From a bacterium (GTDB taxonomy: Bacteria > Patescibacteriota > Microgenomatia > UBA10105 > UBA927): a DNA stretch of 54,288 nt. The position numbers and the translations under genes are program-made. Positions within the stretch are counted from its first letter, which is position 1. The number at the start of each line of letters is the position of its first letter. The stretch spans positions 1 to 54,288 of the forward strand of contig JAKAFY010000008.1 of assembly GCA_021817785.1 (NCBI GenBank), in the 5' to 3' direction. The notes beneath the pieces were generated by a model. The model made no database searches, was not told the DNA's origin, and saw nothing but the letters and a program-made list of their open reading frames with translations. Below are positions 18,991 to 32,022 of the stretch, piece after piece.

Positions 18991-20685
18991 ATGGGAAAAC
19001 AGCGCATGAAAAAACATACACTTGCTTCGGTCGTATCCGCATGTTTAGGTATCGCACTTGTCTTCCTCGTCATCCGTCCGCTATTTGTCCCGTACCTGTT
19101 GGGCACGGCCGACGGATTTGCGCACATGTATCGCCTCGTCAATTTCGATGCCGCATTGTCCCAGGGTATTGTTCGTCCGCGGTGGATCGCCGGAGCGGCA
19201 TTAGGGTATGGCGCGCCGCTGTTTATCTTTAATTATGCCGTCCCGTATTATATCGTTGATGCGATCTATCGCATTGGATTTTCCATACAGACGTCATCAC
19301 AAATCTACGCCGCCATTACTCTTATGGCCTCCTTTGGCGCAATGTATCTTTTGGTTCGACGCTTGTGGGGCACGTGGGCGGGGGTGGTTTCCGCAGCAGT
19401 CTACACGTTTGCTCCCTATCACCTGATCACGACGTATTCCTACGCGGCATGGGGCGAAATGCTGGCGTTTGTATTTCCGCCGCTCATCCTCCTCTGTTTG
19501 TATACCGCCGACCATGTTCCGGCAAGTGAGCGCCGGCAAAAAAATATTTGGTATACCGGGACAGTTGCCTTGTGGGTGCTTTTTATCCTTACCCATAATA
19601 TTTCCTCATTTATGATGTCTCCCGTCATTCTGTTTTTGGCCTTCATACTGGGCAAGTGTACATGGGCTTCCTTCGTGTATCTTATGCGGATAGCGGTGCT
19701 GGTTGTGCTCCTTTCCTGTTTTTTCCTTCTTCCGGCGGTCATGCTTACCGGTACCATAAACATCCCTGCACTGCTTGCCAAAGAAATCGCGCTGCGCACC
19801 GATTATATGATCCCCCTCACGCAGCAGATGCGTACGTCTTATGCCGTTCTGTTCGGGCAGCATATTGTGTATAAAGAATTCACAATCGGAGTACCCATCA
19901 TTATGGTGCTCTGTTTTGGGGCGCTGATGCTCGTATGGAACGGCGTCAAAAAACGCGTGTCCCCCGCGGACTGGTCGCTCGTAGTACTTCTTATCCTTTC
20001 CCTTATGTTGGTCGATCCGTTCTTCCGGGCACTTTACGTGTTCCGTCCGCTGCAATACGTCCTGTATCCTTACCGGTTTCTTTTTCTGGCAACGTTTTCG
20101 GGAAGCGTCCTTTCGGGATATCTCTTCCGGAAATCTGTTGTTGCGGGAGTACTCCTCATCGTGCTTGCCGTGCTGTTTGGCTATCCGTTCACACATCCGT
20201 ATATCGAACTCTTTCCGTTTCCGCCGTCCTATTTTTCCCGGCCGCAGATGGTAGGCTACGCTGTCCCGACGCTGAAAACCATGGGCACCGCGGAATTCCT
20301 TCCTGCTACCGCGGACATGGATTTCCTAAAACAGGAAGAACACCAGTACCTTGCCCACGGCACGCTGCCGGAAAAATTCATACTTCCCGTCGGAGCAGGG
20401 AGTGTCTCTAACCCCGTCATCCGGCAGGAAACGCTCTCGCTTGCCGTCCATGCCGTAAAAGACACATCACTTACGGTGAGTACGCTCTATTATCCGGACT
20501 GGAAAGCAACGGTAGATGGAGCGTCAGTCCGGGTCGGCCATGATCGGCAGGGCCGGATCGTACTTGCCGTGCCTCGGGGCGCGCACACGGTCAAACTCTA
20601 TTTCGGCTATAGTACGGTTGAATATATCGGAGGTGTCATGAGTATCATCGGTATCGTCCTTTTTATCGCATCGCTTTTCCTATGA
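18991..20685 (+). CDS. polytopic membrane protein, GT-C-like (PTPS-related/YfhO-like family)
   Basis: 564 aa with many TM helices. The N-terminal loop motif GTADGFAHMYRLVNFDAALSQGIVRPRW is typical of that family as I recall it. Confidence 0.5.
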   Translation: MGKQRMKKHTLASVVSACLGIALVFLVIRPLFVPYLLGTADGFAHMYRLVNFDAALSQGIVRPRWIAGAALGYGAPLFIFNYAVPYYIVDAIYRIGFSIQTSSQIYAAITLMASFGAMYLLVRRLWGTWAGVVSAAVYTFAPYHLITTYSYAAWGEMLAFVFPPLILLCLYTADHVPASERRQKNIWYTGTVALWVLFILTHNISSFMMSPVILFLAFILGKCTWASFVYLMRIAVLVVLLSCFFLLPAVMLTGTINIPALLAKEIALRTDYMIPLTQQMRTSYAVLFGQHIVYKEFTIGVPIIMVLCFGALMLVWNGVKKRVSPADWSLVVLLILSLMLVDPFFRALYVFRPLQYVLYPYRFLFLATFSGSVLSGYLFRKSVVAGVLLIVLAVLFGYPFTHPYIELFPFPPSYFSRPQMVGYAVPTLKTMGTAEFLPATADMDFLKQEEHQYLAHGTLPEKFILPVGAGSVSNPVIRQETLSLAVHAVKDTSLTVSTLYYPDWKATVDGASVRVGHDRQGRIVLAVPRGAHTVKLYFGYSTVEYIGGVMSIIGIVLFIASLFL

Positions 20686-22256
20686 TCATGCCCGTGCTCA
20701 TCACCCTCCTTGGCGCATTGTTCCGGTTTACCAATTTGAATTGGGACATGGGAGGCAGACTGCATCCCGATGAAGCCCTCATCGTAAACGGCGCACTCGC
20801 GATCAAATATTTTTCACAATTATTCCCGGGGTTCCATGACTATAACGGATATTCCGTATACCTTCTGAAAACGTCCTCGCTGATTACCTCATTCATACTC
20901 AGGTCACCATACTGGTCTGCGTCCCCGGAGGGAGTCACCCTCGTCGGCCGGTTTCTTTCGGCCCTCCTCGCCACGCTTTCCATTCCGCTCGTCTACGCAC
21001 TGGCGAAACGGATATGGAACAAGCCGGTCGGCATACTCGCGGGAGTATTGTTTGCCTGTACCCCGCTTCTTATACAGCTTTCCCATTTTTATACCACGGA
21101 AAGCATACTTATATTTCTGCTGCTGCTCCTTCTTCACGGTGCCGTTTCCTATACCAAAAAACCGCATATCGGATCCTGCATATCTATGGCTATCCCGATG
21201 GGTCTGCTTCTTGCCACAAAAAATACGGCGTATCTCTTTCTCCCGATCCCCATAGGCATCATTCTTATCACCGGATCTCGGCATAGATATGTATTCTTTG
21301 TGTCACTTGCGTTACTTGTACTCATAAGCTTCTTTATGGGTTCTCCGTATTCGTTTCTAGATAGCGCCGGCTACCTCACCCGCTCGCGGTATGTAGCCGA
21401 TGTCGTCGGCGGCAGGCTTCTTATGGACTGGACCATGCAGTTTCAGGATTCGGCGCCGTTTTTCTGGATTCCCAATCTTCTTTTCGCGTTCGGGCCTGCG
21501 GCGGCGGGCATCATCGGCGCCATCAGCATGCTTCTGCTCCGGAAAACATGGAGGAAATGTTCTGTTATCCCGGTGTTTTCCCTCTGGACTGTTTCCTATC
21601 TCGTATTTCTTTCCGTCACCTATCTGAAATTTATCCGCTATAGCGCCCCACTCGCGCCGTTTCTTGCGTTGTTTACGGCGAAATTGGTGTGGGATATCCG
21701 CAATACGCCGATAGGAAAAAGTATTGGAACGGTATGTGTCGGCACACAAATCCTGTGGGCTATCATGTTCTTTCACATTTACCTTATCCCCAACCCAAGC
21801 CTTACCGCAGCTATATGGATAGCCAGGCATGTACCACCGCACTCGGTTATCCTTACGGAAACATGGAACAGCATCATCCGGTTTGACCGGCCGCCGCTCA
21901 CCACCCAGCAATATGGCTTCCGTTCGTTTAACGGATATGCTGCCGACACCCATGACAAGCAACTCTTCCTGGCTTCGCAACTCGAACATTCCGATTATGT
22001 CGTGATTGAAAGTCCGAAAGTAAAAAATACCATTTCCCGACTGCGCGGCAGGTATCCGGCAACGCATGCGTTTTATACGGATCTGGATAGCGGCAAACTG
22101 GGATTTACAAAAGTTGCCGAATTCTCTTCCTATCCCCAACTCGGGCCTTTCGCGGTAAACGACACGTTCGCCGAAGAAACATGGTATGACTTCGATCACC
22201 CTACCGTCACGGTATATAAAAAATCAGTACCGTTATCCGCGGGACAATATCCATAA
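20682..22256 (+). CDS. polytopic membrane protein, GT-C/ArnT-PMT-like (DUF2298-like) glycosyltransferase candidate
   Basis: 524 aa with many TM helices and a first-loop motif GGRLHPDEALIV. It has an ATGA overlap with the upstream gene. Confidence 0.5.
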   Translation: MIMPVLITLLGALFRFTNLNWDMGGRLHPDEALIVNGALAIKYFSQLFPGFHDYNGYSVYLLKTSSLITSFILRSPYWSASPEGVTLVGRFLSALLATLSIPLVYALAKRIWNKPVGILAGVLFACTPLLIQLSHFYTTESILIFLLLLLLHGAVSYTKKPHIGSCISMAIPMGLLLATKNTAYLFLPIPIGIILITGSRHRYVFFVSLALLVLISFFMGSPYSFLDSAGYLTRSRYVADVVGGRLLMDWTMQFQDSAPFFWIPNLLFAFGPAAAGIIGAISMLLLRKTWRKCSVIPVFSLWTVSYLVFLSVTYLKFIRYSAPLAPFLALFTAKLVWDIRNTPIGKSIGTVCVGTQILWAIMFFHIYLIPNPSLTAAIWIARHVPPHSVILTETWNSIIRFDRPPLTTQQYGFRSFNGYAADTHDKQLFLASQLEHSDYVVIESPKVKNTISRLRGRYPATHAFYTDLDSGKLGFTKVAEFSSYPQLGPFAVNDTFAEETWYDFDHPTVTVYKKSVPLSAGQYP

Positions 22257-22985
22257 TCCGGCAGCCGCTACCGCGGTCCACGCCGTGAGTGGCGTTATTG
22301 CAACGATGCTTAATTGTTTATCCAGAGAAAAGAGTCGGGGCATGTTATTGAGGAGAGACGCATAAAATAAAACCGGCAATATGAGGAGATAATCAAATCG
22401 CACCGTCTTCACAGGACTGAGCCATAAAAACATAAGTGTCGTCACCAAACCTACCAGGTACCACCCCAAAAAATTCTGCCATGGGATTCCAAAATATGCG
22501 CTCCCCCGTTCCCAGTGCCACAGCCGTACGGTGTGCACTGCTACCGGATCTATGATGAAATCTACGGATACGAGAATCAGCGGGATAAAAACGACCTCCC
22601 ACCAGTACGGCATTGCAAATGCCGAGACGATAATGACGGCAAGGTTAAATGATACATATTTAAATATGACCCAGGCAAACGATATTTCTATGGGGTATAC
22701 CCCAAGCAACCGGATGTTTGAAGCGAAAAAGGCATGATTCGTATCATATCTGTACGTGACCCCAAATACGTTATATGGAGTTTTCAGACTCATGAGTTCC
22801 GCAGCAGTGCTCAGGATGTACGTTACACCCAACAGGTACAAAATATGGGGTCCGTACAAATACAATCCATGGGCGACAATCGCAATCAGGGCAAATACGG
22901 CAAAGTAAATAAACTTCCTTGTAAACCGCTGTACCAGAAACGGCGCCAGAGAAAGAACACCGATGACAATTGCAGTGCTATCCAT
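22233..22985 (-). CDS. integral membrane protein, DUF422 ('carotenoid biosynthesis protein')-like
   Basis: About 250 aa and multi-TM. The motif FGIPWQNFLGWYLVG resembles that family. I place the start at ATG 22985, which overlaps the stop of the upstream gene by 1 nt (TGATG); the track start is 23054. Confidence 0.4.
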   Translation of the reverse strand: MDSTAIVIGVLSLAPFLVQRFTRKFIYFAVFALIAIVAHGLYLYGPHILYLLGVTYILSTAAELMSLKTPYNVFGVTYRYDTNHAFFASNIRLLGVYPIEISFAWVIFKYVSFNLAVIIVSAFAMPYWWEVVFIPLILVSVDFIIDPVAVHTVRLWHWERGSAYFGIPWQNFLGWYLVGLVTTLMFLWLSPVKTVRFDYLLILPVLFYASLLNNMPRLFSLDKQLSIVAITPLTAWTAVAAAGLWILSRG

Positions 22986-23437
22986 CAGCGCATCACCTTT
23001 GCAAATACCATAGAGGCGACCAACACCGTTACCCAATTTGCCCCCAACCACCACCCCAGGAGTGAGAGCGGCACGTTAAACAGCAGATACATGGGAAACG
23101 ATGCGAATACGATGGAAAGCCCTACCATGATGTCGGTAAACCCGACTACCTGTGCCCAGTACTTTTTTCCGAAAAGCGGCTGCATAAATTCAAATACGGC
23201 AGACAGCGTGCACCCGGTCACATAGGTGAAAAGCAATGATATCACGAAAAATGAAAGCGGCGGCGGACCGGATGACGTCATCATAAGCTTGCTCCATAAA
23301 CCGGAAAGTGCCGGATCCTGGTAATATTTCATCGTAAAGAAAATCTCGATCTGCATGACGATTTCTGCAATCACGACATACCAAAATCCCGAGATAAGGA
23401 TCTTTTTCCACTGCAATGTTTTCATCCATGCACTCAT
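22985..23437 (-). CDS. hypothetical membrane protein
   Basis: About 150 aa with 4 hydrophobic segments. I place the start at ATG 23437 because AAGGAGG lies 5-6 nt upstream; the track start TTG 23455 is less likely. Confidence 0.55.
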   Translation of the reverse strand: MSAWMKTLQWKKILISGFWYVVIAEIVMQIEIFFTMKYYQDPALSGLWSKLMMTSSGPPPLSFFVISLLFTYVTGCTLSAVFEFMQPLFGKKYWAQVVGFTDIMVGLSIVFASFPMYLLFNVPLSLLGWWLGANWVTVLVASMVFAKVMR

Positions 23438-23451
23438 AACATCCTCCTTTT

Positions 23452-24264
23452 TCAATCCATAAACGTATGGCTATGGATTATAGTTTGTAACGCGGTATGC
23501 AGCGCTTTCGGCGCTGCACACACCGTATAAAGTGTAGACACTTTTGTCATAGGATTGCTGTAATCCATCGTACGTCCGATAAAGTCCGTAAACTGCCCGC
23601 CCGCTTCTTTTATGATAATCTCCGGCGCGACGTTATCCCATATTTTCGTCGTGCGGTTCAACCACGCGCCGTATTTGCCGGTGGCCACCGCCATCTGGTC
23701 AAAGCAGCTGTTGCTGCTCCGCATATTGCGTGCGCGCATGGAAATGTCGACAAAAAGCGCTGCTTCCTTTTCCGTATCGTGCGGCTTATCGGGATACGCA
23801 TCAAGCGCATAGGCAATAAGCGCGTGGCGTAGTACCGGGTCATCGCTCACGCGGATAGGCGTGTCGTTGCAAAACGCCCCCTCCCCTTGTTCCGCGTAAT
23901 ACAATTCGTCAAATGCGGGCAAAAGCACTCCTCCGGCAATCGGTTCCGCCCCGCGCAACAGCCCCACCATGACGCCATACATCGGGAGTGCTTTGGCGAA
24001 ATCGCTCGTGCCGTCTATGGGATCGATGACCCAGGTCATTTCAGACCCGTTGTCCACACCGCGCGTTTCTTCATCGATGATATTGTCTGTAGGATACGAC
24101 TCACGAATCCGGGAAACCAAAAGTGTGCTTATGGCGATATCCGTTTCCGTCACCACCTGATTCTGGTCCCCGCCCTTTATGGACGCTATCGCTTTTCCGT
24201 ATCCCTCTTGGGCGATCTTGCCGGCATCCTCTAGCAAAGAAGTGATAAAGGATCGGTACTTCAT
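23452..24264 (-). CDS. inositol monophosphatase family protein (SuhB-like)
   Basis: 270 aa with the motifs WVIDPIDGTSDF and EETRG. Confidence 0.85.
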   Translation of the reverse strand: MKYRSFITSLLEDAGKIAQEGYGKAIASIKGGDQNQVVTETDIAISTLLVSRIRESYPTDNIIDEETRGVDNGSEMTWVIDPIDGTSDFAKALPMYGVMVGLLRGAEPIAGGVLLPAFDELYYAEQGEGAFCNDTPIRVSDDPVLRHALIAYALDAYPDKPHDTEKEAALFVDISMRARNMRSSNSCFDQMAVATGKYGAWLNRTTKIWDNVAPEIIIKEAGGQFTDFIGRTMDYSNPMTKVSTLYTVCAAPKALHTALQTIIHSHTFMD

Positions 24265-24265
24265 A

Positions 24266-24571
24266 CTATCGGCCGAATCCCATAAACAAAAGTGCCAGCG
24301 CTACCGCGGTGACGGCCCCGAACGCGAGGACGGTTTGGAGAAACAACTGTACCGCGGCTTTCTTCTTTCCGTCGAAATACAACACTGTGGGAGTATAACA
24401 AAACACGTATCCCATCACGGCGGCAGATAGAGTAAAAAGACAGATGACGGCAAGCGGAGCCATGAAGCTCGGCCCGTGCGGGGCATAACGGGTTCCGTAA
24501 TACATGACGAAACTGATAAACGTTATATACAGACCGGCGACAAGCGCATTCAGAACGGGATTTTTTGTCAT
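24266..24571 (-). CDS. small hypothetical membrane protein (3 TM)
   Basis: 101 aa, hydrophobic. It is separated by 1 nt from the downstream IMPase gene. Confidence 0.5.
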   Translation of the reverse strand: MTKNPVLNALVAGLYITFISFVMYYGTRYAPHGPSFMAPLAVICLFTLSAAVMGYVFCYTPTVLYFDGKKKAAVQLFLQTVLAFGAVTAVALALLFMGFGR

Positions 24572-24613
24572 TACCTACATTATATACCCTGATTCAAATA
24601 CAAACTCGAGTCG

Positions 24614-24642
24614 ATTTAATCGAGGGTAAAACATGGTATAAT
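24614..24642 (+). promoter_or_regulatory. candidate promoter for the tRNA gene (extended -10)
   Basis: TGgTATAAT at 24634..24642 is a perfect extended -10, with a weak -35-like TTTAAT at 24615..24620. This would give a leader of about 109 nt before the tRNA. Confidence 0.3.
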
Positions 24643-24757
24643 ACCAAAGTTCTTTTACATTCCCCTGCTTGTCCGCCGAAGTACTCACGCCAGTCGGGAC
24701 GAAGGAGGATAGCTCAATGGGAATGTAATTGAATAATGACTTTAACAAGTTAATAAT

Positions 24758-25038
24758 TCCCCTGTAGCTCAACGGTAGAGCGGCTTCCTGTCGGTTAGGC
24801 AGCTTTTCGTAGTAATACGGATTGAAAAATCGGGCTAATTCGGGAAACCCCGTCATATTTGACGGATAATCCCGAGCTAAATTGATGTACTAAATGGTAC
24901 GTCATAAATGTGTAGAGACTATATACCCGAGTCTCGTCCTCGACGAAAGTTAGGACGGATATGAGATAGTCCAGACCTTTTGGTAACAGAAGGATTACTG
25001 TAAGAAGAAGGTTGCTGGTCCGAATCCAGCCGGGGGAG
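24758..25038 (+). tRNA. tRNA-Asn(GUU) interrupted by a group I intron (exons 24758..24791 and 25001..25038)
   Basis: The joined exons fold as a 72-nt cloverleaf. Acceptor stem is TCCCCTG/CGGGGGA, D arm GCTC-AACGGTA-GAGC and anticodon stem GCTTC/GAAGA (with a 27:43 mismatch). The anticodon loop is CTGTTAA, the T arm GCTGG-TCCGAAT-CCAGC and the discriminator G. CCA is not encoded. Confidence 0.75.
24792..25000 (+). ncRNA. group I self-splicing intron, small (209 nt), no ORF
   Basis: The 5' exon ends in U (24791), which can form a wobble with G24799 in a P1 helix (24788..24792 with 24798..24802). UUA at 24795..24797 can pair with the first 3 nt of exon 2 (P10), and the last intron nucleotide is G (25000). 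Core-like strings are AATCCCGAGCTAAAT (24868..24882), GTGTAGAGACTA (24910..24921) and a P7-like pair GACTAT (24917..24922) / ATAGTC (24966..24971). There are also GNRA-capped hairpins. Confidence 0.7.
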
Positions 25039-25078
25039 CAATTTTAATTTAGAGCGTCAGAACAATACAAAATTCGTT

Positions 25079-25831
25079 TTACTCATTCTCCGACGTAACG
25101 TTTGAATCTGCCACTCTTGTTGGTTTAGAAATTACGGTGATATTGGGTCTACCTTTAAAAGCGCGTTTATATATCCTTGCTCTCTGTGGATCCGGCGCTA
25201 TAAATTCAATCGCACACTTTGGGTCAATTGATGTAATAAAGTCATACATATCTCTCATAAATTTCCTGCTTGTCTCTAAAGAACGTCCATCCATTGTGGA
25301 AGAAAGCTTCGCTTCAAAAGCTCGGTCAGCGGCTTTCTCAAGAACTTTATTAGCAAGAGCCCCGAGTGCTTTACGTTGATTAACTGCTCTGCCAACTATT
25401 CTTAATACATTTGTTGCTTTGATTACGCGTTTCAACTTAGCCGCATCTTTTTCAAACGCAAACGATATCGTCATAATCTTTTCAGGCAAATTTGTTGTTT
25501 CCTCTCTTGGTTCCAAGATGGAGCCGCCCGAATGATAAGCCATGTTGTAGCAAGAAAAGGCAACTGCTCTTCCCAAGTGTTGAAAACCAAACGTCATTCT
25601 TGTTGGTTCAACGTATCCTGCTGTTAATATTTGTTTAGGCATTTTTTCCTCAAATCTTCTTTTGGGTATCAAGAATGGAGTGTCAAGCCTTCTGACTCTA
25701 TCGAACGCACTGACGCCGATGAAGCCTCTGATTTTATCCAACTCGTGATCATGAGGAGATCGTTCTGCATCTAAGACACGACTTAGCCCCTCTACTTTAT
25801 GTGTTTGTAAAAATTGATGAGATTCTTGCAT
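25079..25831 (-). CDS. hypothetical protein (no family recognised)
   Basis: A 250-aa ORF with an ATG start, located 40 nt from the tRNA 3' end. It is soluble-looking and Lys/Arg-rich, with no motif that I can name. Confidence 0.5.
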   Translation of the reverse strand: MQESHQFLQTHKVEGLSRVLDAERSPHDHELDKIRGFIGVSAFDRVRRLDTPFLIPKRRFEEKMPKQILTAGYVEPTRMTFGFQHLGRAVAFSCYNMAYHSGGSILEPREETTNLPEKIMTISFAFEKDAAKLKRVIKATNVLRIVGRAVNQRKALGALANKVLEKAADRAFEAKLSSTMDGRSLETSRKFMRDMYDFITSIDPKCAIEFIAPDPQRARIYKRAFKGRPNITVISKPTRVADSNVTSENE

Positions 25832-26030
25832 AAAAGCAATATGTTGATCTATTTGTTCTAATTATACATATTAAGCAAAAGATTGATAAAAGTTTCGAAT
25901 ATCGTCCATTGTCCGGAGCAAAATAGATACGATCTAATCCATTCTATTGTTCGGGCGCTGGTTTGTCGTAGAGCAAATTGACTCTAGAGAAGGTCTTTTT
26001 ATAACTATATTAGTTTGATATTATTTGAGT

Positions 26031-26393
26031 ATGGATTCAAATAAGGAAATTGCTCTCTCATTTCTCCGTATGTCAACTTCGGGAAGTATTGACGAAGCAT
26101 ATGGGAAATATGTTAGTTCTAACTTTCATCACCATAATCCATATTTTCATGATGATGCCGCGTCTCTTAAAGAAGGCATGAAGGATAATAAAAAAAGATT
26201 TCCAAATAAAATCTACAAGGTAATACAAGCGCTTGAGGATGGAGATTTAGTTGCAGTTCATGGATTGGTGAAACTCTCAGAGAAGATGCAAATAGCAGTT
26301 GTTCATATTCTTCGTTTTGAAAACGGTAAGATAGTTGAGATGTGGGACATTGGACAACAAATACCTAAAGATGCTGTAAACAGTATGTTTTAG
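26031..26393 (+). CDS. SnoaL-like / NTF2-fold protein
   Basis: About 120 aa. The pattern ...EIALSFLRM...YVSSNFHHHNP...GDLVAVHG...ILRFENGKIVEMWD is typical of SnoaL-like polyketide-cyclase-fold proteins. I used ATG 26031; the track uses TTG 26025. Confidence 0.65.
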   Translation: MDSNKEIALSFLRMSTSGSIDEAYGKYVSSNFHHHNPYFHDDAASLKEGMKDNKKRFPNKIYKVIQALEDGDLVAVHGLVKLSEKMQIAVVHILRFENGKIVEMWDIGQQIPKDAVNSMF

Positions 26394-26457
26394 AAATTGC
26401 TGCAACTCACCTACTGAATAGATTCGACTTTGATAGTATCAAATAGGTACACATAAA

Positions 26458-26829
26458 ATGAAAAGACCAATATTCTTAACAATATGGCTCGTTATCATGC
26501 TTCTATTCTCTGTCGCGCTTTCTGTTGACTCGCTCACATATCTTCCCATGATACGTCTTACGAAAAACTACATCAGTCTTATTGGGATAGTTGCTGGTTT
26601 TGCGCAGATTGTAGCGTTAATCTGGCTTCTGCGATGGAAAAGGTCAGGCGTTACGCTTTTACTATCTTCTATGATTGTCGTGTTTCTCATCACGGCAATA
26701 AACGAATTTTACGTTACGTCCAATATGAACCAAATACTGATCAGTCTGTCGCTTGTCCTACTCGTAAACATCATCATGCTTGGCATTTTATACTTGGCTA
26801 TAAAGCCGGTTTGGAAAAAATTCACATAG
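26458..26829 (+). CDS. hypothetical membrane protein (4 TM)
   Basis: 123 aa and strongly hydrophobic, with an ATG start. Confidence 0.45.
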   Translation: MKRPIFLTIWLVIMLLFSVALSVDSLTYLPMIRLTKNYISLIGIVAGFAQIVALIWLLRWKRSGVTLLLSSMIVVFLITAINEFYVTSNMNQILISLSLVLLVNIIMLGILYLAIKPVWKKFT

Positions 26830-27086
26830 AGATTGGGAGACAATAAACGACAGTCTTTTCCGCAGCACACAGAGAAGCTGACAGCAACAGATCTGATGTA
26901 TCGGTATTACGGAAGTCTGAACTAGAAAAAACGACCTGTGGCAGCTGCTCTGGTCTGAAGATGCAGAGTTTTCCGACTCCTCTCATACGCTTGTTGCCAA
27001 CGGCAAACCCAAAATTATTCAGTCATCCAACACGTTCCTTAGTAATATTAAGCTTCGTGAGTAGATGATGCGGATGTTATAGACTT

Positions 27087-27401
27087 TTACAAAACGCTGC
27101 GGCTTCTTGCTTTTTGAGAATTACTAATAACCGCCCAGGCAGCCATAATAATACTTGGGTAGTCTCCCTTAATAAAATTCTTCGGATTAGGTGTGAGCAT
27201 TAATATTGCAATTCTGTTTGCTTCCTGTAACTTAATCATGGCGCCATTTTGATCCCTATCGAATTTACGAGCAGCTTGAAATGCAATCCGTCGATATTGT
27301 GGATTGTTAACACATTGTAATACTAATCTAAGATTTTTTCCCGTCGAGCAGAACCTTTTCTTTTGTCTGAAAGGGAAACGCCTGTAGCTAAAACATCTGC
27401 C
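27087..27401 (-). pseudogene. start-less open frame of 104 codons, possibly a 5'-truncated gene remnant
   Basis: The minus-strand frame is open from the TGA at 27404..27402 down to the TAA at 27089..27087. It reads ...NNPQYRRIAFQAARKFDRDQNGAMIKLQEANRIAILMLTPNPKNFIKGDYPSIIMAAWAVISNSQKARSRSVL. There is no ATG, GTG or TTG before the ATG at 27239, which would leave only 50 aa. It lies in a 709-bp stretch without track ORFs. Confidence 0.3.
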
Positions 27402-27538
27402 TCATTAAATTTTCTCACGTTGTATATTATATGCCGGTATACACATTTTTGCCATAGAATTGGAAATCTGATCCCAATTACTTCTACTCAAACAAAGATT
27501 TCATATTCCCCATTCCATCTTCTTGATATACTATTTCG

Positions 27539-28276
27539 GTGAAAACAAAACGTTTCGTACGTGTGGCAGGGTGCGTACTTATATCCGCTCTGTTATGCAG
27601 CTATATTTTGTTTCAGATCAGCAAATCCAGGACTTTTCAGTTTTTCGGAGGACTCACCTACCGGGTTGCTACCGATCACAAGGTAGTAGCGCTCACCTTT
27701 GACGACGCCCCCACGCTGAAGACGGCGGACGTCTTGGCTATCCTAAAACAAAAACACGTTGTGGCGACGTTTTACGAAATCGGCAAGGAAATAGAACGGT
27801 ATCCGGAAATCGCAAAAGCGGTAGTCGCTGCGGGCATGGAGGTTGGTAATCACTCCTATTCTCATCAGCGGTTTCTTCTTACATCGCCCTCGTTTGTTCA
27901 GTCCGAAGTGCAAAAAACAAACGACCTCATACGCAGTACCGGTTACAAAGGAGACATTACCTTTCGCCCGCCAAACGGTAAGAAGCTTTTTTCGCTTCCG
28001 TGGTACCTGCACCAGCACGGCATACAAACCATTATGTGGGATGTGGAACCGGACACCTATCTGCCGACAAACCAAACAGAAGATGAACAAACTACATTCT
28101 TGGTCGGCTATACGGTTGCCAACGTTCGGCCGGGATCGATTATCCTCCTACATCCGTTTTGTGATACGTGCGGGGGCGATCGGCGCGCAATCGGACAAAT
28201 TATAGATGACTTACAATCCAAGGGGTACAAATTTGTGACCATATCCCAGTTACTTGCATCTAGTACTCAACACTAA
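27539..28276 (+). CDS. polysaccharide deacetylase (NodB homology domain)
   Basis: 245 aa with an N-terminal TM segment and the NodB motifs TFDDAP and HSYSHQ. The start codon is GTG. Confidence 0.85.
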   Translation: MKTKRFVRVAGCVLISALLCSYILFQISKSRTFQFFGGLTYRVATDHKVVALTFDDAPTLKTADVLAILKQKHVVATFYEIGKEIERYPEIAKAVVAAGMEVGNHSYSHQRFLLTSPSFVQSEVQKTNDLIRSTGYKGDITFRPPNGKKLFSLPWYLHQHGIQTIMWDVEPDTYLPTNQTEDEQTTFLVGYTVANVRPGSIILLHPFCDTCGGDRRAIGQIIDDLQSKGYKFVTISQLLASSTQH

Positions 28277-28345
28277 CGATTGCATATGCAATATTAAATT
28301 TTCTTAAACCCGATTATGTGGTCATATCTCTGATATACTACACGC

Positions 28346-28768
28346 ATGCTACGCTGTACTCCTTTTCTTCTGTTTGACGGCAACTGTGCCGAGGCCATGA
28401 CTTTTTACCACGCATGCCTCGGCGGCAAATTAACGCTTACCAAACTTGCCGACACTCCGATGAAAGATATGTTTCCGAAAGAAAAATGGGAACGACTCAT
28501 TCATGCGAATCTCATAAGCGGCGATATTGAAATTTCCGCCACGGATTGGATGGCATCTCCCACATTTGATCCGGTGCAGGGAAACACCACTGCAATATTC
28601 GTGATTGGTGAAGGGCTTGAAGAACTAAAGGTGGTTTTCGACAGACTTAAAGACGGGAAAAATAATGCGAGGCTTCAAGAACTTCACGAAATGCCATTTG
28701 GAACATATGGACAGTTTTACGACAAATTTGGCGTTCAGTGGATTTTCAAAGGAGGGGCAAAAAGATAG
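28346..28768 (+). CDS. VOC/glyoxalase-fold protein, PhnB-like
   Basis: 140 aa. PFLLFDGNCAEAMTFY...GTYGQFYDKFGVQW is characteristic of the PhnB-like family. Confidence 0.75.
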   Translation: MLRCTPFLLFDGNCAEAMTFYHACLGGKLTLTKLADTPMKDMFPKEKWERLIHANLISGDIEISATDWMASPTFDPVQGNTTAIFVIGEGLEELKVVFDRLKDGKNNARLQELHEMPFGTYGQFYDKFGVQWIFKGGAKR

Positions 28769-28859
28769 ATTCTCTCCACTTCCATGATTTGAAGCAAAAA
28801 TAAAAAATGTACCCTCTGAAAATTTGCATAAAAGCGACAGCAGAGTACAATATTATCGC

Positions 28860-29189
28860 ATGAAATCAAGGCAGCAGAAATTGACAGTTGTCAGCGCTGT
28901 GACGGGAATAGTTTTCGGAATTTCCGGCGGTCCTGCCTATATTCTCATTATATGGGGGACGGTAGCTTTCGTTTTTGGGTATTATTCTATGTCTCAAAAA
29001 GACGCATTAGTAAATGGATTCCTTTTCGGATTTCTAGCATCATTTTTCTTCATGTGGCATGGGTACGCAGGAAACGCTCCCGCCATAACAAGAACTCCTT
29101 TCTTCGGTGGGCTTGGTGCTTTTGGAGGAACTTGTGGACTTCTGTTATCTCTTATCGGAAATCTCGCTTCCAAACATTTCAAAAAGTAA
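28860..29189 (+). CDS. hypothetical small membrane protein
   Basis: About 109 aa from ATG 28860 (the track uses TTG 28824), with 3 hydrophobic, Gly-rich segments. Confidence 0.4.
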   Translation: MKSRQQKLTVVSAVTGIVFGISGGPAYILIIWGTVAFVFGYYSMSQKDALVNGFLFGFLASFFFMWHGYAGNAPAITRTPFFGGLGAFGGTCGLLLSLIGNLASKHFKK

Positions 29190-29426
29190 GTCCACAAACA
29201 TTCGGTTGAGTATATTCTTAACGACTTAGTCGGGAAGGTTGACTAACCTCATCACGTGAATTTATAGGTTCTAGCTCCGCCTATCAGGGAAAGCAATATG
29301 CCATTAACAATGTATTAAAGTTCGATCAAGGCTATAAAGCGAGGGACAAATATGTTAACTTCGAAAAAATTGCACCTTCAGACAAGGAGAGTAATTACAT
29401 TGTTTAGTGGTTCCTTATGCGGACTT

Positions 29427-30119
29427 TTATGGCGTAGGCGACACATATGGACCTGTTGGGGGTTCTGCGGTCACCGATACATCATCAAACCACACCTCAC
29501 CATCCTCAAGAAAAAACACGTGGGCTTTCATACATAAGAAATCCTGTGACGCAATAAATGTTGTGATTGCAGGTTCATACCCGTGTACACCAAATGGGAA
29601 ATTTGCATATCCTTCCCCATTCGGTTCAAGATAACTTTCACCATTTGTATCAAACATTTCGACTCCAATACCAAATCCCGTATTCAACCGCGGATATACA
29701 TTTACAAATTTCTTTGCCTTCGCCCATCCGGAAACCGTTATTTTGGTGCCAGCCTTCCCGCTCAAAGGAATAACCTGAGTTAGTGACCTCACGTATTCAT
29801 CTGGGGGTACTACATATCTTCCCATATGAAACGAACACGATCCGGCATGACTTTCCCCTTTTGCGCAGTCTGACATATCAGTCGGCTGCAAATTACTACT
29901 CCGTTGCCATCCCGTCGGAGTAAGCGGATCACCTGCATTCGTTTCAAATGACGGATTTATTACATAATTCCGCCCAACCTGTATCTGCGTTTCTGATGGG
30001 CTCGTGCACGTGTTACGGAACTTCGCTATATATGCAGGAGAATTTGTTGGCAATGTCGTAACAAGCGCCATCACCATCGCGATAAGCGCCTGAATGAGTG
30101 AGGTAATATAGGCAAGCAT
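29427..30119 (-). CDS. secreted protein with a carbohydrate-binding-module-like (CBM4/9/22-like) jelly-roll domain
   Basis: From ATG 30119 there is a signal/TM segment MLAYITSLIQALIAMVMALV. Then come NPSFE...GWQR...VSGWAK...VWFDDVSV, which resemble CBM_4_9-type domains. The track start TTG 30200 is less likely. Confidence 0.45.
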   Translation of the reverse strand: MLAYITSLIQALIAMVMALVTTLPTNSPAYIAKFRNTCTSPSETQIQVGRNYVINPSFETNAGDPLTPTGWQRSSNLQPTDMSDCAKGESHAGSCSFHMGRYVVPPDEYVRSLTQVIPLSGKAGTKITVSGWAKAKKFVNVYPRLNTGFGIGVEMFDTNGESYLEPNGEGYANFPFGVHGYEPAITTFIASQDFLCMKAHVFFLEDGEVWFDDVSVTAEPPTGPYVSPTP

Positions 30120-30412
30120 AAAACATCTATCCGTAGTAAGTATGTCAGCGTGCGCATTCGCGTGCAAGATTTGCGTTACGTAAATAGGAAAAATTATCAA
30201 TGAATTTATGTATCCCGTTACATATTACACTAAGAACTAACGCTGTGTTTAGAAAAATTCCAGACTGGTTAAAGCCATGAGTGAACTGACAGACAATCAT
30301 ACCTAAATCGGCTTCCCGTAATAAATACGATCATTACTTACCTCCAAGCCGCTTTCCTTTGATTCGCACGTGCCCGCATTTGTAATAAGTTGCAGTATAA
30401 TCATATGTAGTC

Positions 30413-30781
30413 ATGGATATTTCTACCTTCTTAGCCAGATTTTGGGGTAGTCTGTTTCTAATCCTTGGTTTATCTTCAATGGGTGCTAAATTCCTTGGAC
30501 GAGTGATTCAATATACCGAAGATAAAACCATTACGGTGTCGACCGGATATATTACGTTCCTATTAGGTCTTGCTACAGTTGTTGCACATAATCTATGGGT
30601 TGCTGACTGGAGAGTTGCGGTCACTATTTTAGGGTGGATTACGTTACTAAAGGGAATAGAAAAAATCACATTTCCTGATCGAGTGAACAAAAAAGCCCAA
30701 ATGTTTAAAGGAAAACAGACTGTGTGGGGATTTGTTATCTTTGTAATCGGCGCTGGGTATTTTTGGATGAGCTTGAAGTAG
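30413..30781 (+). CDS. hypothetical membrane protein
   Basis: 122 aa with 4 hydrophobic segments and an ATG start. Confidence 0.45.
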   Translation: MDISTFLARFWGSLFLILGLSSMGAKFLGRVIQYTEDKTITVSTGYITFLLGLATVVAHNLWVADWRVAVTILGWITLLKGIEKITFPDRVNKKAQMFKGKQTVWGFVIFVIGAGYFWMSLK

Positions 30782-30819
30782 CACTGCTAAAGAGCAGACA
30801 AAGCAGGCGCTAACACCCC

Positions 30820-31410
30820 CTAGTGAGAAGGCGTATATCTGTATTTAGCTCGTCTATACGTAATTTCCGCAATTATTACAATCTTTGCACACAACACGCC
30901 TGTGGGATACAACCACGTTATCAAAGAGTATCGTTGTAGCGATGCGATAGATAGACTATGCTTTAGAGCATCAAAATACATAGAACCCAAGGACTCGCTT
31001 TTGGGTGCGTTCCATGTTTTGCGCATTGTCGGAAGGAATCCTAGGATATCCGTGAACGTTGCCAATATCACCGAAAGAAGCACATTTTGGGCGAGTATCC
31101 AAGGCACGATTGAAAGTACTGCCAACGCCAAACAGACCGTATCAAACTTCGTGATATCGGACGTTCCGTAAAAAAAGGAAAGAACGAGCACAAAGAGCGT
31201 ATAAATCGAGGTCACGCCGGTCGCCCATGCGCCTGGACCTCCCCCGCCGTGTAACTGACCAAGAAATCCGATGATGGTGAGGATCGTCCAAATAAGCCAG
31301 GTATAAATATGGGGTTTAGTGTTACCCCGAAATATATCGCGGATATAGAGAAACGCGCTCCCGGCAGCAAACAGCGCCGCAAGCAATCCGAGAAATATTT
31401 TTATATTCAT
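30820..31410 (-). CDS. hypothetical polytopic membrane protein
   Basis: 196 aa with about 6 TM segments and an ATG start. No family recognised. Confidence 0.5.
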   Translation of the reverse strand: MNIKIFLGLLAALFAAGSAFLYIRDIFRGNTKPHIYTWLIWTILTIIGFLGQLHGGGGPGAWATGVTSIYTLFVLVLSFFYGTSDITKFDTVCLALAVLSIVPWILAQNVLLSVILATFTDILGFLPTMRKTWNAPKSESLGSMYFDALKHSLSIASLQRYSLITWLYPTGVLCAKIVIIAEITYRRAKYRYTPSH

Positions 31411-31710
31411 AGCATCTATAAAATCAACGAGGGCGGTAATTCATCGGGTCCAATCTGATATGTGCGTCGTTCAATTTATTCCAACTTCGTATGTATACTA
31501 TCACGATTCATCTACTCAATTCCGCATTCTAACGTTATATTCGTATACGATGAAATCCCTGAGATGGGATGGTACCAGACTTTACATGTATATTAAACGT
31601 AAACAATTATTAACGAATTCAATCACGACAAACAAAACCAAACTTAGATTATTCATTCATGTCATTCGCTTCATTTATAAATAGATGAATTTATTTGATA
31701 CAATACTTCC

Positions 31711-32022
31711 ATGACAACTCATACCATTTCCGGAGGCGTCGTACACACTGTTCCCGAGGATTTGCGAAATGCACTATCCCATGATACTAAGGCTCTTACA
31801 CTTTGGGAAAGCCTCACGCCGCTTTCCCGTAACGAGTGGATTTGCTGGGTGGAGTACCCCAAAAAAGAAGAGACCAGAAAAGATCACGTTAGACGGGTTG
31901 TAAGTGAGTTGAAAGACGGCATGCGACGGCCCTGTTGTTGGATCGGCTGCATCCACCGGACGGACAAAGCAATCAGCCCATCGGTCCGGGGAATACTGAA
32001 CAAACGGAAACATATTGTCTAA
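31711..32022 (+). CDS. YdeI/OmpD-associated family protein
   Basis: 103 aa. PEDLRNAL...WESLTPLSRNEWICWV...KKEETR is typical of that family. Confidence 0.65.
   Translation: MTTHTISGGVVHTVPEDLRNALSHDTKALTLWESLTPLSRNEWICWVEYPKKEETRKDHVRRVVSELKDGMRRPCCWIGCIHRTDKAISPSVRGILNKRKHIV

Follow-up and report, generated by a model that had tools for sequence, protein, structure and literature searches.

A tRNA-Asn(GUU) gene of a patescibacterium is split within its anticodon by a 209-nucleotide group I intron without a reading frame

The DNA analysed here, referred to below as the window, is a stretch of 54,288 nucleotides (nt) of contig JAKAFY010000008.1 from a bacterium of the Patescibacteriota. At positions 24758..25038 of its forward strand lies a tRNA-Asn(GUU) gene that is split between anticodon positions 35 and 36 by a group I intron of 209 nt, which carries no open reading frame (ORF). 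We consider this element to be a genuine group I intron that is very probably competent for splicing, its catalytic activity being judged by analogy with characterised group I introns.

Exon 1 (24758..24791, plus strand) comprises the 5' strand of the acceptor stem, the D arm, the 5' strand of the anticodon stem and the loop bases C32, U33, G34 and U35. Exon 2 (25001..25038, plus strand) contributes U36, A37 and A38, the 3' strand of the anticodon stem, the variable loop, the T arm, the 3' strand of the acceptor stem and G73; the CCA end is not encoded. These exons had been proposed in an earlier reading of the locus that was made from the letters alone (the sequence-only reading) and, when they were joined, ARAGORN returned a 72-nt cloverleaf that it named tRNA-Asn(gtt). 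The acceptor stem of this cloverleaf is 7 bp long and contains U1-A72, the D stem has 4 bp and is accompanied by G18 and G19, the anticodon loop reads CUGUUAA, the T stem has 5 bp and the discriminator base is G73. U1-A72 and G73 are identity elements of bacterial tRNA-Asn, and the presence of both in the ARAGORN cloverleaf supports the likeness to tRNA-Asn that had been pointed out previously. In its default mode, ARAGORN found no tRNA in the whole window, which shows that the gene is truly hidden from routine annotation. The 281-nt precursor, including the intron, has a predicted folding energy of -105.5 kcal/mol (z = -5.64), and none of 200 shuffled sequences folded as well.

The intervening 209 nt (24792..25000, plus strand) were matched by the Rfam covariance model RF00028 (Intron_gpI), with which the sequence-only reading had suggested that its proposal be checked. 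The match covered positions 24777..24993 on the plus strand and the full model (1-253), with a score of 61.8 bits (E-value of 2.4e-13) against a gathering score of 50 bits, and it was the sole RNA match of gathering level in the window. A different, non-intron RNA had been envisaged as the alternative occupant of this region, and no such family appeared when 24600..25200 was rescanned permissively, with matches admitted up to E = 10. In addition, a profile of sequence only, derived with nhmmer from six seeds of classical tRNA introns, which come from the Williams alignment discussed below and have Leu, Arg, fMet or Ile2 hosts, matched positions 24836..24977 with an E-value of 9.3e-6 and nothing else in the window. 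The resemblance to the Azoarcus and Anabaena introns, which the sequence-only reading had noted, is thus recovered in the core. The strings on which that comparison was based, AATCCCGAGCTAAAT at 24868..24882, GTGTAGAGACTA at 24910..24921 and the P7-like pair GACTAT/ATAGTC at 24917..24922 / 24966..24971, are present, and every other string and coordinate quoted at the time was likewise found in its place. Based on architecture and similarity, the intron probably represents the bacterial tRNA-intron (IC3-like) type.

The ends of the intron are set by alleles that lack it. A metagenome scan for the spliced junction yielded 62 contigs with uninterrupted tRNA-Asn genes, and one of these alleles, L183, is identical to the joined exons at 72 of 72 positions (34 of 34 in exon 1). 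Five syntenic empty sites (L164, L142, L138, L173 and L122) retain the neighbouring gene for a protein of 101 amino acids (aa), with 61-67% aa identity. The bases flanking the junction differ, the last base of exon 1 being T and the last of the intron G, and the first base of the intron being C and the first of exon 2 T. Therefore, no shifted splice would yield the same product, and the junction 24791/25001 is unique. The resulting splice pattern, with slashes for the splice sites, is CUGU/c...g/UAA. The P1 wobble pair U24791-G24799 at the 5' splice site and the terminal (omega) G of the intron (25000..25000, plus strand), both of which had been predicted, were found in 96 of 96 relatives as well. 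It should be noted that the last nine bases of the intron (GGAUUACUG, within 24992..25000) resemble the end of exon 1 (GGCUUCCUGU, within 24782..24791), and because of this resemblance blastn runs the alignment of exon 2 for 9 nt into the intron. The family consensus at the 3' end of the intron is GGATTnnTG.

The fold was examined in 96 distinct introns, each with four exon bases, that had been aligned by MAFFT and not fitted to a structure. In this alignment, RNAalifold independently recovered the paired regions P1, P2, P3, P4, P5, P6a, P8 and P9, with compensatory changes in 28 of 46 pairs. The canonical P1-P9 fold with the P3/P7 pseudoknot was then drawn by hand from the window row and its pairs were counted over the 96 introns. 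Here, 89.8% of the cells were paired, compared to 31-46% when the partners were slid by 1-3 columns, and the covariation score was 0.401 versus 0.147 for shuffles, none of 500 shuffles scoring as high. The window copy has lost no core helix and deviates at no position that is invariant in the family; its architecture is compact, consisting of P1-P9 and P6a only.

At the 5' end, the P1 hairpin (24788..24802, plus strand, as are all following elements of the intron) pairs the exon bases CUGU plus the first intron base C with GGCAG, its arms being 24788..24792 and 24798..24802 and its loop GGUUA. The four exon pairs are invariant in 96 of 96 relatives, and the fifth pair covaries (CG 69, GC 10, AU 6, UG 6, UA 2, GU 1). 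A 'terminator' that was predicted at 24788..24802 is simply this P1 followed by Us. P2 (24806..24821; 24806..24811 / 24816..24821) is capped by a GUAA tetraloop and showed changes on both sides in 6 of 6 pairs, with 91.7% of the cells paired. P3 joins 24830..24834 to 24926..24930, with compensatory changes in three of five pairs and 99.4% of the cells paired. P4 (24840..24844 / 24871..24875, spanning 24840..24875), which encloses J4/5 and P5, is invariant and 99% paired, and was recovered by RNAalifold, as was the P5 hairpin (24850..24854 / 24861..24865), in which four of five pairs covary. The two pairs of P6 (24876..24877 / 24910..24911, region 24876..24911) are invariant, and all eight pairs of the P6a hairpin (24883..24890 / 24897..24904) covary. 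P7 is formed by GACUA (24917..24921) and UAGUC (24967..24971), the latter preceded by J8/7 (AUGAGA); it forms a pseudoknot with P3 and is invariant, with 99.8% of the cells paired in the 96 relatives. P9 (24976..24993; 24976..24982 / 24987..24993), with a GUAA tetraloop, covaries in seven of seven pairs, and 95.2% of its cells are paired.

In the case of P8 (24931..24960), the register drawn from the window row did not carry over to the family (52.8% paired) and was given up, the register of RNAalifold being the conserved one. This register (alignment columns 187-191 / 219-223) covaries strongly and starts directly after P3; in the window it lies at 24931..24933 / 24958..24960 and is continued by 24935..24939 / 24953..24957, with a GAAA-capped tip (24945..24948). 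An inner extension of P8 is common to the window and loci L082 and L099. A local hairpin that RNAalifold placed at the site of P7 (columns 166-180) was disregarded, since this program cannot draw pseudoknots. The GNRA-capped hairpins that had been mentioned in the sequence-only reading can now be assigned to P2 (GUAA), P8 (GAAA) and P9 (GUAA). Across the 96 introns, the loops of P2 and P9 are mostly of the GNRA (GUAA) type. A symmetric internal loop in P6, UAAAU/UAAAU, is almost invariant in the same introns and its A residues are invariant; it may be a candidate docking site for a tetraloop that is specific to this subtype.

By analogy with characterised group I introns, the gene would be transcribed as a 281-nt precursor. 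The anticodon-loop bases C32-U35 would pair with the intron guide GCAG to form P1, in which the U24791-G24799 wobble would mark the 5' splice site, and the core of P3-P9 would fold into the P3/P7 pseudoknot and the P4-P6 stack. A free guanosine would then occupy P7, the helix that contains the guanosine-binding site of known group I introns, and would attack after U24791, upon which the terminal G25000 would take the place of the guanosine and the freed 3'-OH of exon 1 would attack after G25000. In this way, the exons would be joined into CUGUUAA, giving mature tRNA-Asn, and the intron would be released.

Several points weigh against a splicing-competent intron at this locus. Firstly, P4, P6 and P7 are invariant, so that covariation is neutral with respect to these helices, which rest on homology; in particular, P7 never varies and is therefore assigned from its homology to group I introns rather than from covariation. 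Secondly, the P10 pairing is weak and offset by one base. The sequence-only reading had paired UUA at 24795..24797 with UAA at 25001..25003, and these 3 bp can indeed form if an offset of one base from P1 is allowed. However, they carry no weight as evidence, since a 3-bp P10 in either register was found in 17 of 92 Asn hosts, which is about the level expected by chance. Thirdly, no experimental or transcript evidence for splicing of the Asn/Asp subtype was found in the searched literature. Fourthly, selection on the splicing of the window copy is deduced rather than seen, and a second, uninterrupted tRNA-Asn gene may exist elsewhere in the genome. Lastly, the T loop (UCCGAAU, 25019..25025) has C at tRNA position 55 (base 25020). 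T54-U55-C56 is near-universal in elongator tRNAs and would be expected in a bacterial tRNA-Asn, so that C55, taken alone, could hint at a decaying gene.

One variant of the favoured explanation, which does not exclude it, holds that the intron is functional but needs a protein helper in the cell, such as a chaperone or a maturase-like protein. Many group I introns need helpers in vivo, and a P1 of merely 5 bp together with the weak P10 would suit such a dependence. On the other hand, the Azoarcus and Anabaena tRNA introns, which are the closest characterised relatives, self-splice in vitro, and the window intron encodes no protein. We therefore regard a helper requirement as unlikely.

It is more unlikely still that the element is a group I relic which no longer splices, leaving a tRNA pseudogene and a translation system that relies on another tRNA-Asn gene. 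Our tRNA search was confined to the 54-kb window of the genome, and intron-less alleles occur in related organisms, so that the lineage can do without the intron. The T loop with C55, as described above, could point in the same direction. The sequence-only reading was right about this base, which also occurs in relatives, including intron-less alleles. The loops UCCGAAU or UCCGAGU were observed in 16 of 92 intron-bearing tRNA-Asn genes, four of which represent the window and its duplicate assemblies; the remaining loci are L039, L040, L049, L051, L053, L057, L082, L099, L101, L106, L116 and L118. Among the intron-less contigs, 7 of 62 carry C55, namely the identical allele L183 and six others. 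As it is shared by the identical allele L183, which lacks the intron, and by about a dozen relatives, C55 is taken as a tolerated lineage variant that recurs, and not as a sign of decay. Furthermore, a relic is difficult to reconcile with core helices that are all intact, with family-invariant positions that are all kept in the window copy, and with exons that are identical to those of the intron-less allele L183. In the nearest relatives, L082 and L099, the exons are 100% and 97% identical to those of the window, whereas the introns are only about 80% identical and yet adopt the same fold, which indicates purifying selection on the structure.

Two ORFs run antisense to the locus on the minus strand, one of 93 aa (24575..24856) that extends over the spacer and exon 1 into the intron's 5' part, and one of 40 aa (24919..25041) that lies over exon 2 and the intron's 3' part. 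We most improbably face a real gene in the 93-aa frame, with the RNA signals being incidental. This frame does open with ATG and stops 3 nt ahead of the point at which the next minus-strand gene starts, and one assembly (L003), though not two others, lists it as a gene. However, no Pfam family was found for either ORF, and most tblastn matches of the 93-aa ORF in relatives were limited to residues ~1-35, which are antisense to exon 1 and the conserved 5' core; only L099 (residues 3-82) and a few weak matches go beyond. Relatives, too, frequently have long open frames antisense to the intron. Such frames come along with the homologous RNA, and little conservation is seen at the protein level beyond the overlap with the RNA. 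In view of the overwhelming RNA evidence (the RF00028 match and the covarying fold), we regard the 93-aa ORF as a spurious by-product of RNA conservation, in agreement with the sequence-only reading, and the 40-aa ORF as equally spurious.

Finally, the label 'tRNA-Asp (gtc) i(37,194)', which ARAGORN reported for the raw sequence in intron mode and which would make the locus a tRNA-Asp(GUC) gene interrupted at the canonical position 37/38 by an intron of 194 nt, can be set aside as an artefact of that placement, as it forces a eukaryotic/archaeal intron position, takes the intron base C24792 as anticodon base 36, disregards the U-G pair and the terminal G, and conflicts both with allele L183, which reads GUU, and with true Asp hosts, which have the anticodon stem CUUCC...GGAAG and the 3' exon CAC.

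To place the tRNA-Asn intron of the window among its relatives, genomes were scanned at one per species (GTDB representatives) with two of its core strings as the query. The same subtype was found at 117 loci, almost all of them in metagenome-assembled genomes (MAGs) of the Patescibacteria, also known as the candidate phyla radiation (CPR). The lineages concerned include Woese-, Gottesman-, Davies-, Levy-, Curtiss-, Roizman-, Ames-, Collier-, Shapiro-, Yanofsky- and Jorgensenbacteria; titles of some loci that read 'uncultured Gammaproteobacteria' were taken as placeholder labels. Genes next to the tRNA of the window have homologues in MAGs of the Microgenomates type, so that the DNA probably comes from a member of the Microgenomates group. 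Hosts were mapped by anchoring on the invariant P1 (exon CUGU with GCAG) and by requiring closure of the anticodon stem. An enumeration of every T/G pair near the exon ends given by ARAGORN was rejected, since this program accepts pseudo-tRNAs spliced inside P9 and thereby produced nonsense hosts. The mapping resolved 106 of the 117 loci, 88 as tRNA-Asn interrupted at the site of the window and 18 as tRNA-Asp; most of the others look like tRNA-Asn by eye and the rest are cut. Together with the window and its three duplicate assemblies, this gives 110 mapped sequences, of which 92 are Asn hosts, spliced as CUGU/...G/UAA, and 18 are Asp(GUC) hosts, spliced as CUGU/...G/CAC. G73 is present in all 92 Asn hosts. 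The introns are 174-242 nt long, with a median of 195 nt for the Asn hosts.

The Asn and Asp copies form separate similarity groups, and the nearest neighbour of an intron has the same host in 91 of 96 cases. Nine genomes have homologous introns in both tRNA-Asp and tRNA-Asn (locus pairs L006/L048, L008/L025, L026/L091, L036/L101, L064/L060, L070/L094, L083/L106, L084/L089 and L023/L118). In seven genomes with both, the Asp copy resembles Asp copies from other genomes (0.72-0.98) more closely than it resembles the Asn copy of its own genome (0.64-0.75), which implies that the split between the two is old. A contiguous GUG faces the exon-2 bases CAC in 12 of the 18 Asp hosts, and in this branch the guide appears to be adapted to the 3' exon of the host. 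As far as can be judged from these sequences, the lineage seems to target the CUGU of tRNAs with GUN anticodons, mostly tRNA-Asn, with an old sister branch in tRNA-Asp, and its presence is patchy.

The P1 loop of the window intron has 5 nt and no ORF. In contrast, three relatives, L079:469-807(+), L104:3002-3358(+) and L121:4516-4842(+), have an ORF of 108-118 aa inside the P1 loop. These ORFs match PHROG families of HNH endonucleases (phrog_2255) with E-values of about 1e-30, whereas Pfam gave merely marginal support for HNH; their 3' ends overlap the P1 and P2 strands. The three introns are probably homing-competent versions. Such HNH-bearing relatives and the intron-less syntenic alleles fit a lineage that undergoes both gain and loss and in which the endonuclease has disappeared from most copies. 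In two of the same loci, the reading frame of a large serine recombinase stops exactly where the tRNA-Asn with the intron has its 3' end (L079:987-2711(-) and L121:5036-6610(-)), and the recombinase of L079, for which Pfam families were tested, contains Resolvase, Recombinase and Zn_ribbon_recom. This arrangement suggests that tRNA-Asn serves an integrative element as attachment site in those genomes; nothing comparable was found in the window.

The host and the insertion site were already catalogued in 2020. In a survey of 80,413 bacterial genomes, Williams (bioRxiv 2020, 10.1101/2020.01.27.920355) increased the number of tRNA host settings on record from 4 to 21, found such introns to be frequent in metagenomic assemblies of unnamed phyla, and included Pam37.Asn.4Ug and Wba81.Asp.4Ug in the seed alignment; that work presents counts and a model, without structural, evolutionary or experimental analysis. 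The view of the sequence-only reading that no tRNA-Asn host had been described is therefore incorrect, since Pam37.Asn.4Ug represents the same host and site. Indeed, the window has the features of the Asn.4Ug class, namely a tRNA-Asn (GUU) product, an insertion after the fourth base of the anticodon loop, U at -1 and a terminal G. The Pam37 intron itself is structurally different, longer and equipped with extra insertions, and is 51% identical to that of the window over the aligned columns. Closer to the window is Wba81.Asp.4Ug from Candidatus Woesebacteria GW2011_GWF1_31_35 (CP011214.1, our locus L027), which belongs to the same subtype: it is 69% identical, its P1 is likewise CUGUC/GGCAG, and neither the core strings nor the set of helices differ. 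It differs in its host, tRNA-Asp(GUC) with the 3' exon CAC, and its branch usually has the contiguous 3-bp P10 GUG (12 of 18) that is mostly absent in Asn hosts. That group I introns often invade the tRNAs of CPR bacteria was also reported by Lui et al. 2021 (PMC8172020). The locus of the window thus adds to a known and common kind of intron and opens no new category.

The classical IC3 introns reside in tRNA-Ile(CAU) of Azoarcus, tRNA-Leu(UAA) of Anabaena and other cyanobacteria, tRNA-fMet and tRNA-Arg(CCU). Like the window intron, they are compact (~200-250 nt), interrupt the anticodon loop and have P1-P9 without large peripheral domains, GNRA-capped P2 and P9, and the common P4/P6/P7 core sequence that gave rise to the nhmmer match. 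Their self-splicing has been demonstrated experimentally, whereas the subtype of the window is known here from its sequence. They differ in their hosts, in their insertion after loop base 2, 3 or 5 instead of 4, and in their occurrence in cyanobacteria and proteobacteria instead of Patescibacteria. Signatures that set the window subtype apart from them are GCUAAAU...UAAAUGU in P6 and ACUAUAUACC in J7/3-P3. Structures are available for the Azoarcus intron (PMC13168695); no structural study of the Asn/Asp subtype was found in the searched literature.

With respect to the genomic surroundings, the G+C content of the window falls from about 0.51 to 0.40-0.43 within 24000..32000, starting at the tRNA. 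The genes of this stretch look accessory (SnoaL-like, 26025..26393; polysaccharide deacetylase, 27539..28276; glyoxalase-like, 28346..28768), and there are several ORFs without a family. The 3' end of the tRNA, a repeat of which would mark an island, was not found a second time in the window, so that there is no direct sign of an integrated island. Likewise, a blastn search of the locus against a phage collection gave no match, and the window is therefore not considered to be phage DNA. The promoter scan yielded one promoter-like site (24729..24757), which was no better than those in shuffled sequences and lies too close to the first base of the tRNA. Upstream of the tRNA, two large multi-pass membrane proteins are encoded at 18991..22256, of which the one of 524 aa belongs to PMT_2 (glycosyltransferase family 39-like) according to precomputed Pfam hits for the matching public assembly GCA_027424485.1. 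Also upstream of the tRNA, the minus strand encodes members of the Caroten_synth family (22233..23054) and of the inositol monophosphatase family (23452..24264).

Such an intron has consequences for annotation. ARAGORN misses the gene in its default mode and mislabels it as tRNA-Asp in intron mode, gene callers can place a fake protein over the locus, and tRNAscan-SE, according to the paper on version 2.0, was not designed for detecting group I introns in tRNAs. As tRNA finders miss the gene, genomes of this group can seem to lack tRNA-Asn, which skews inferences on their completeness and codon usage.

Taken together, our findings would be compatible with an intron lineage that is spread throughout the Patescibacteria and uses its four-base guide GCAG to target the CUGU common to all tRNAs with GUN anticodons. 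This lineage would have colonised tRNA-Asn and, long ago, tRNA-Asp with a co-adapted GUG P10, and HNH-bearing mobile members of it would persist. We put this picture, including its implications for decoding and for the T loop, forward tentatively and as a single proposition that is plausible but short of probable. If it is true, all asparagine decoding in genomes with a single tRNA-Asn gene would depend on the predicted ribozyme, and the recurrent C55 would mean that the organisms in question do without the near-universal contact made by U55 or pseudouridine-55. The locus in the window is a well-resolved example of this large and uncharacterised intron lineage of reduced-genome bacteria, and it comes with an exact junction, a covarying fold, empty-site alleles and endonuclease-carrying relatives.

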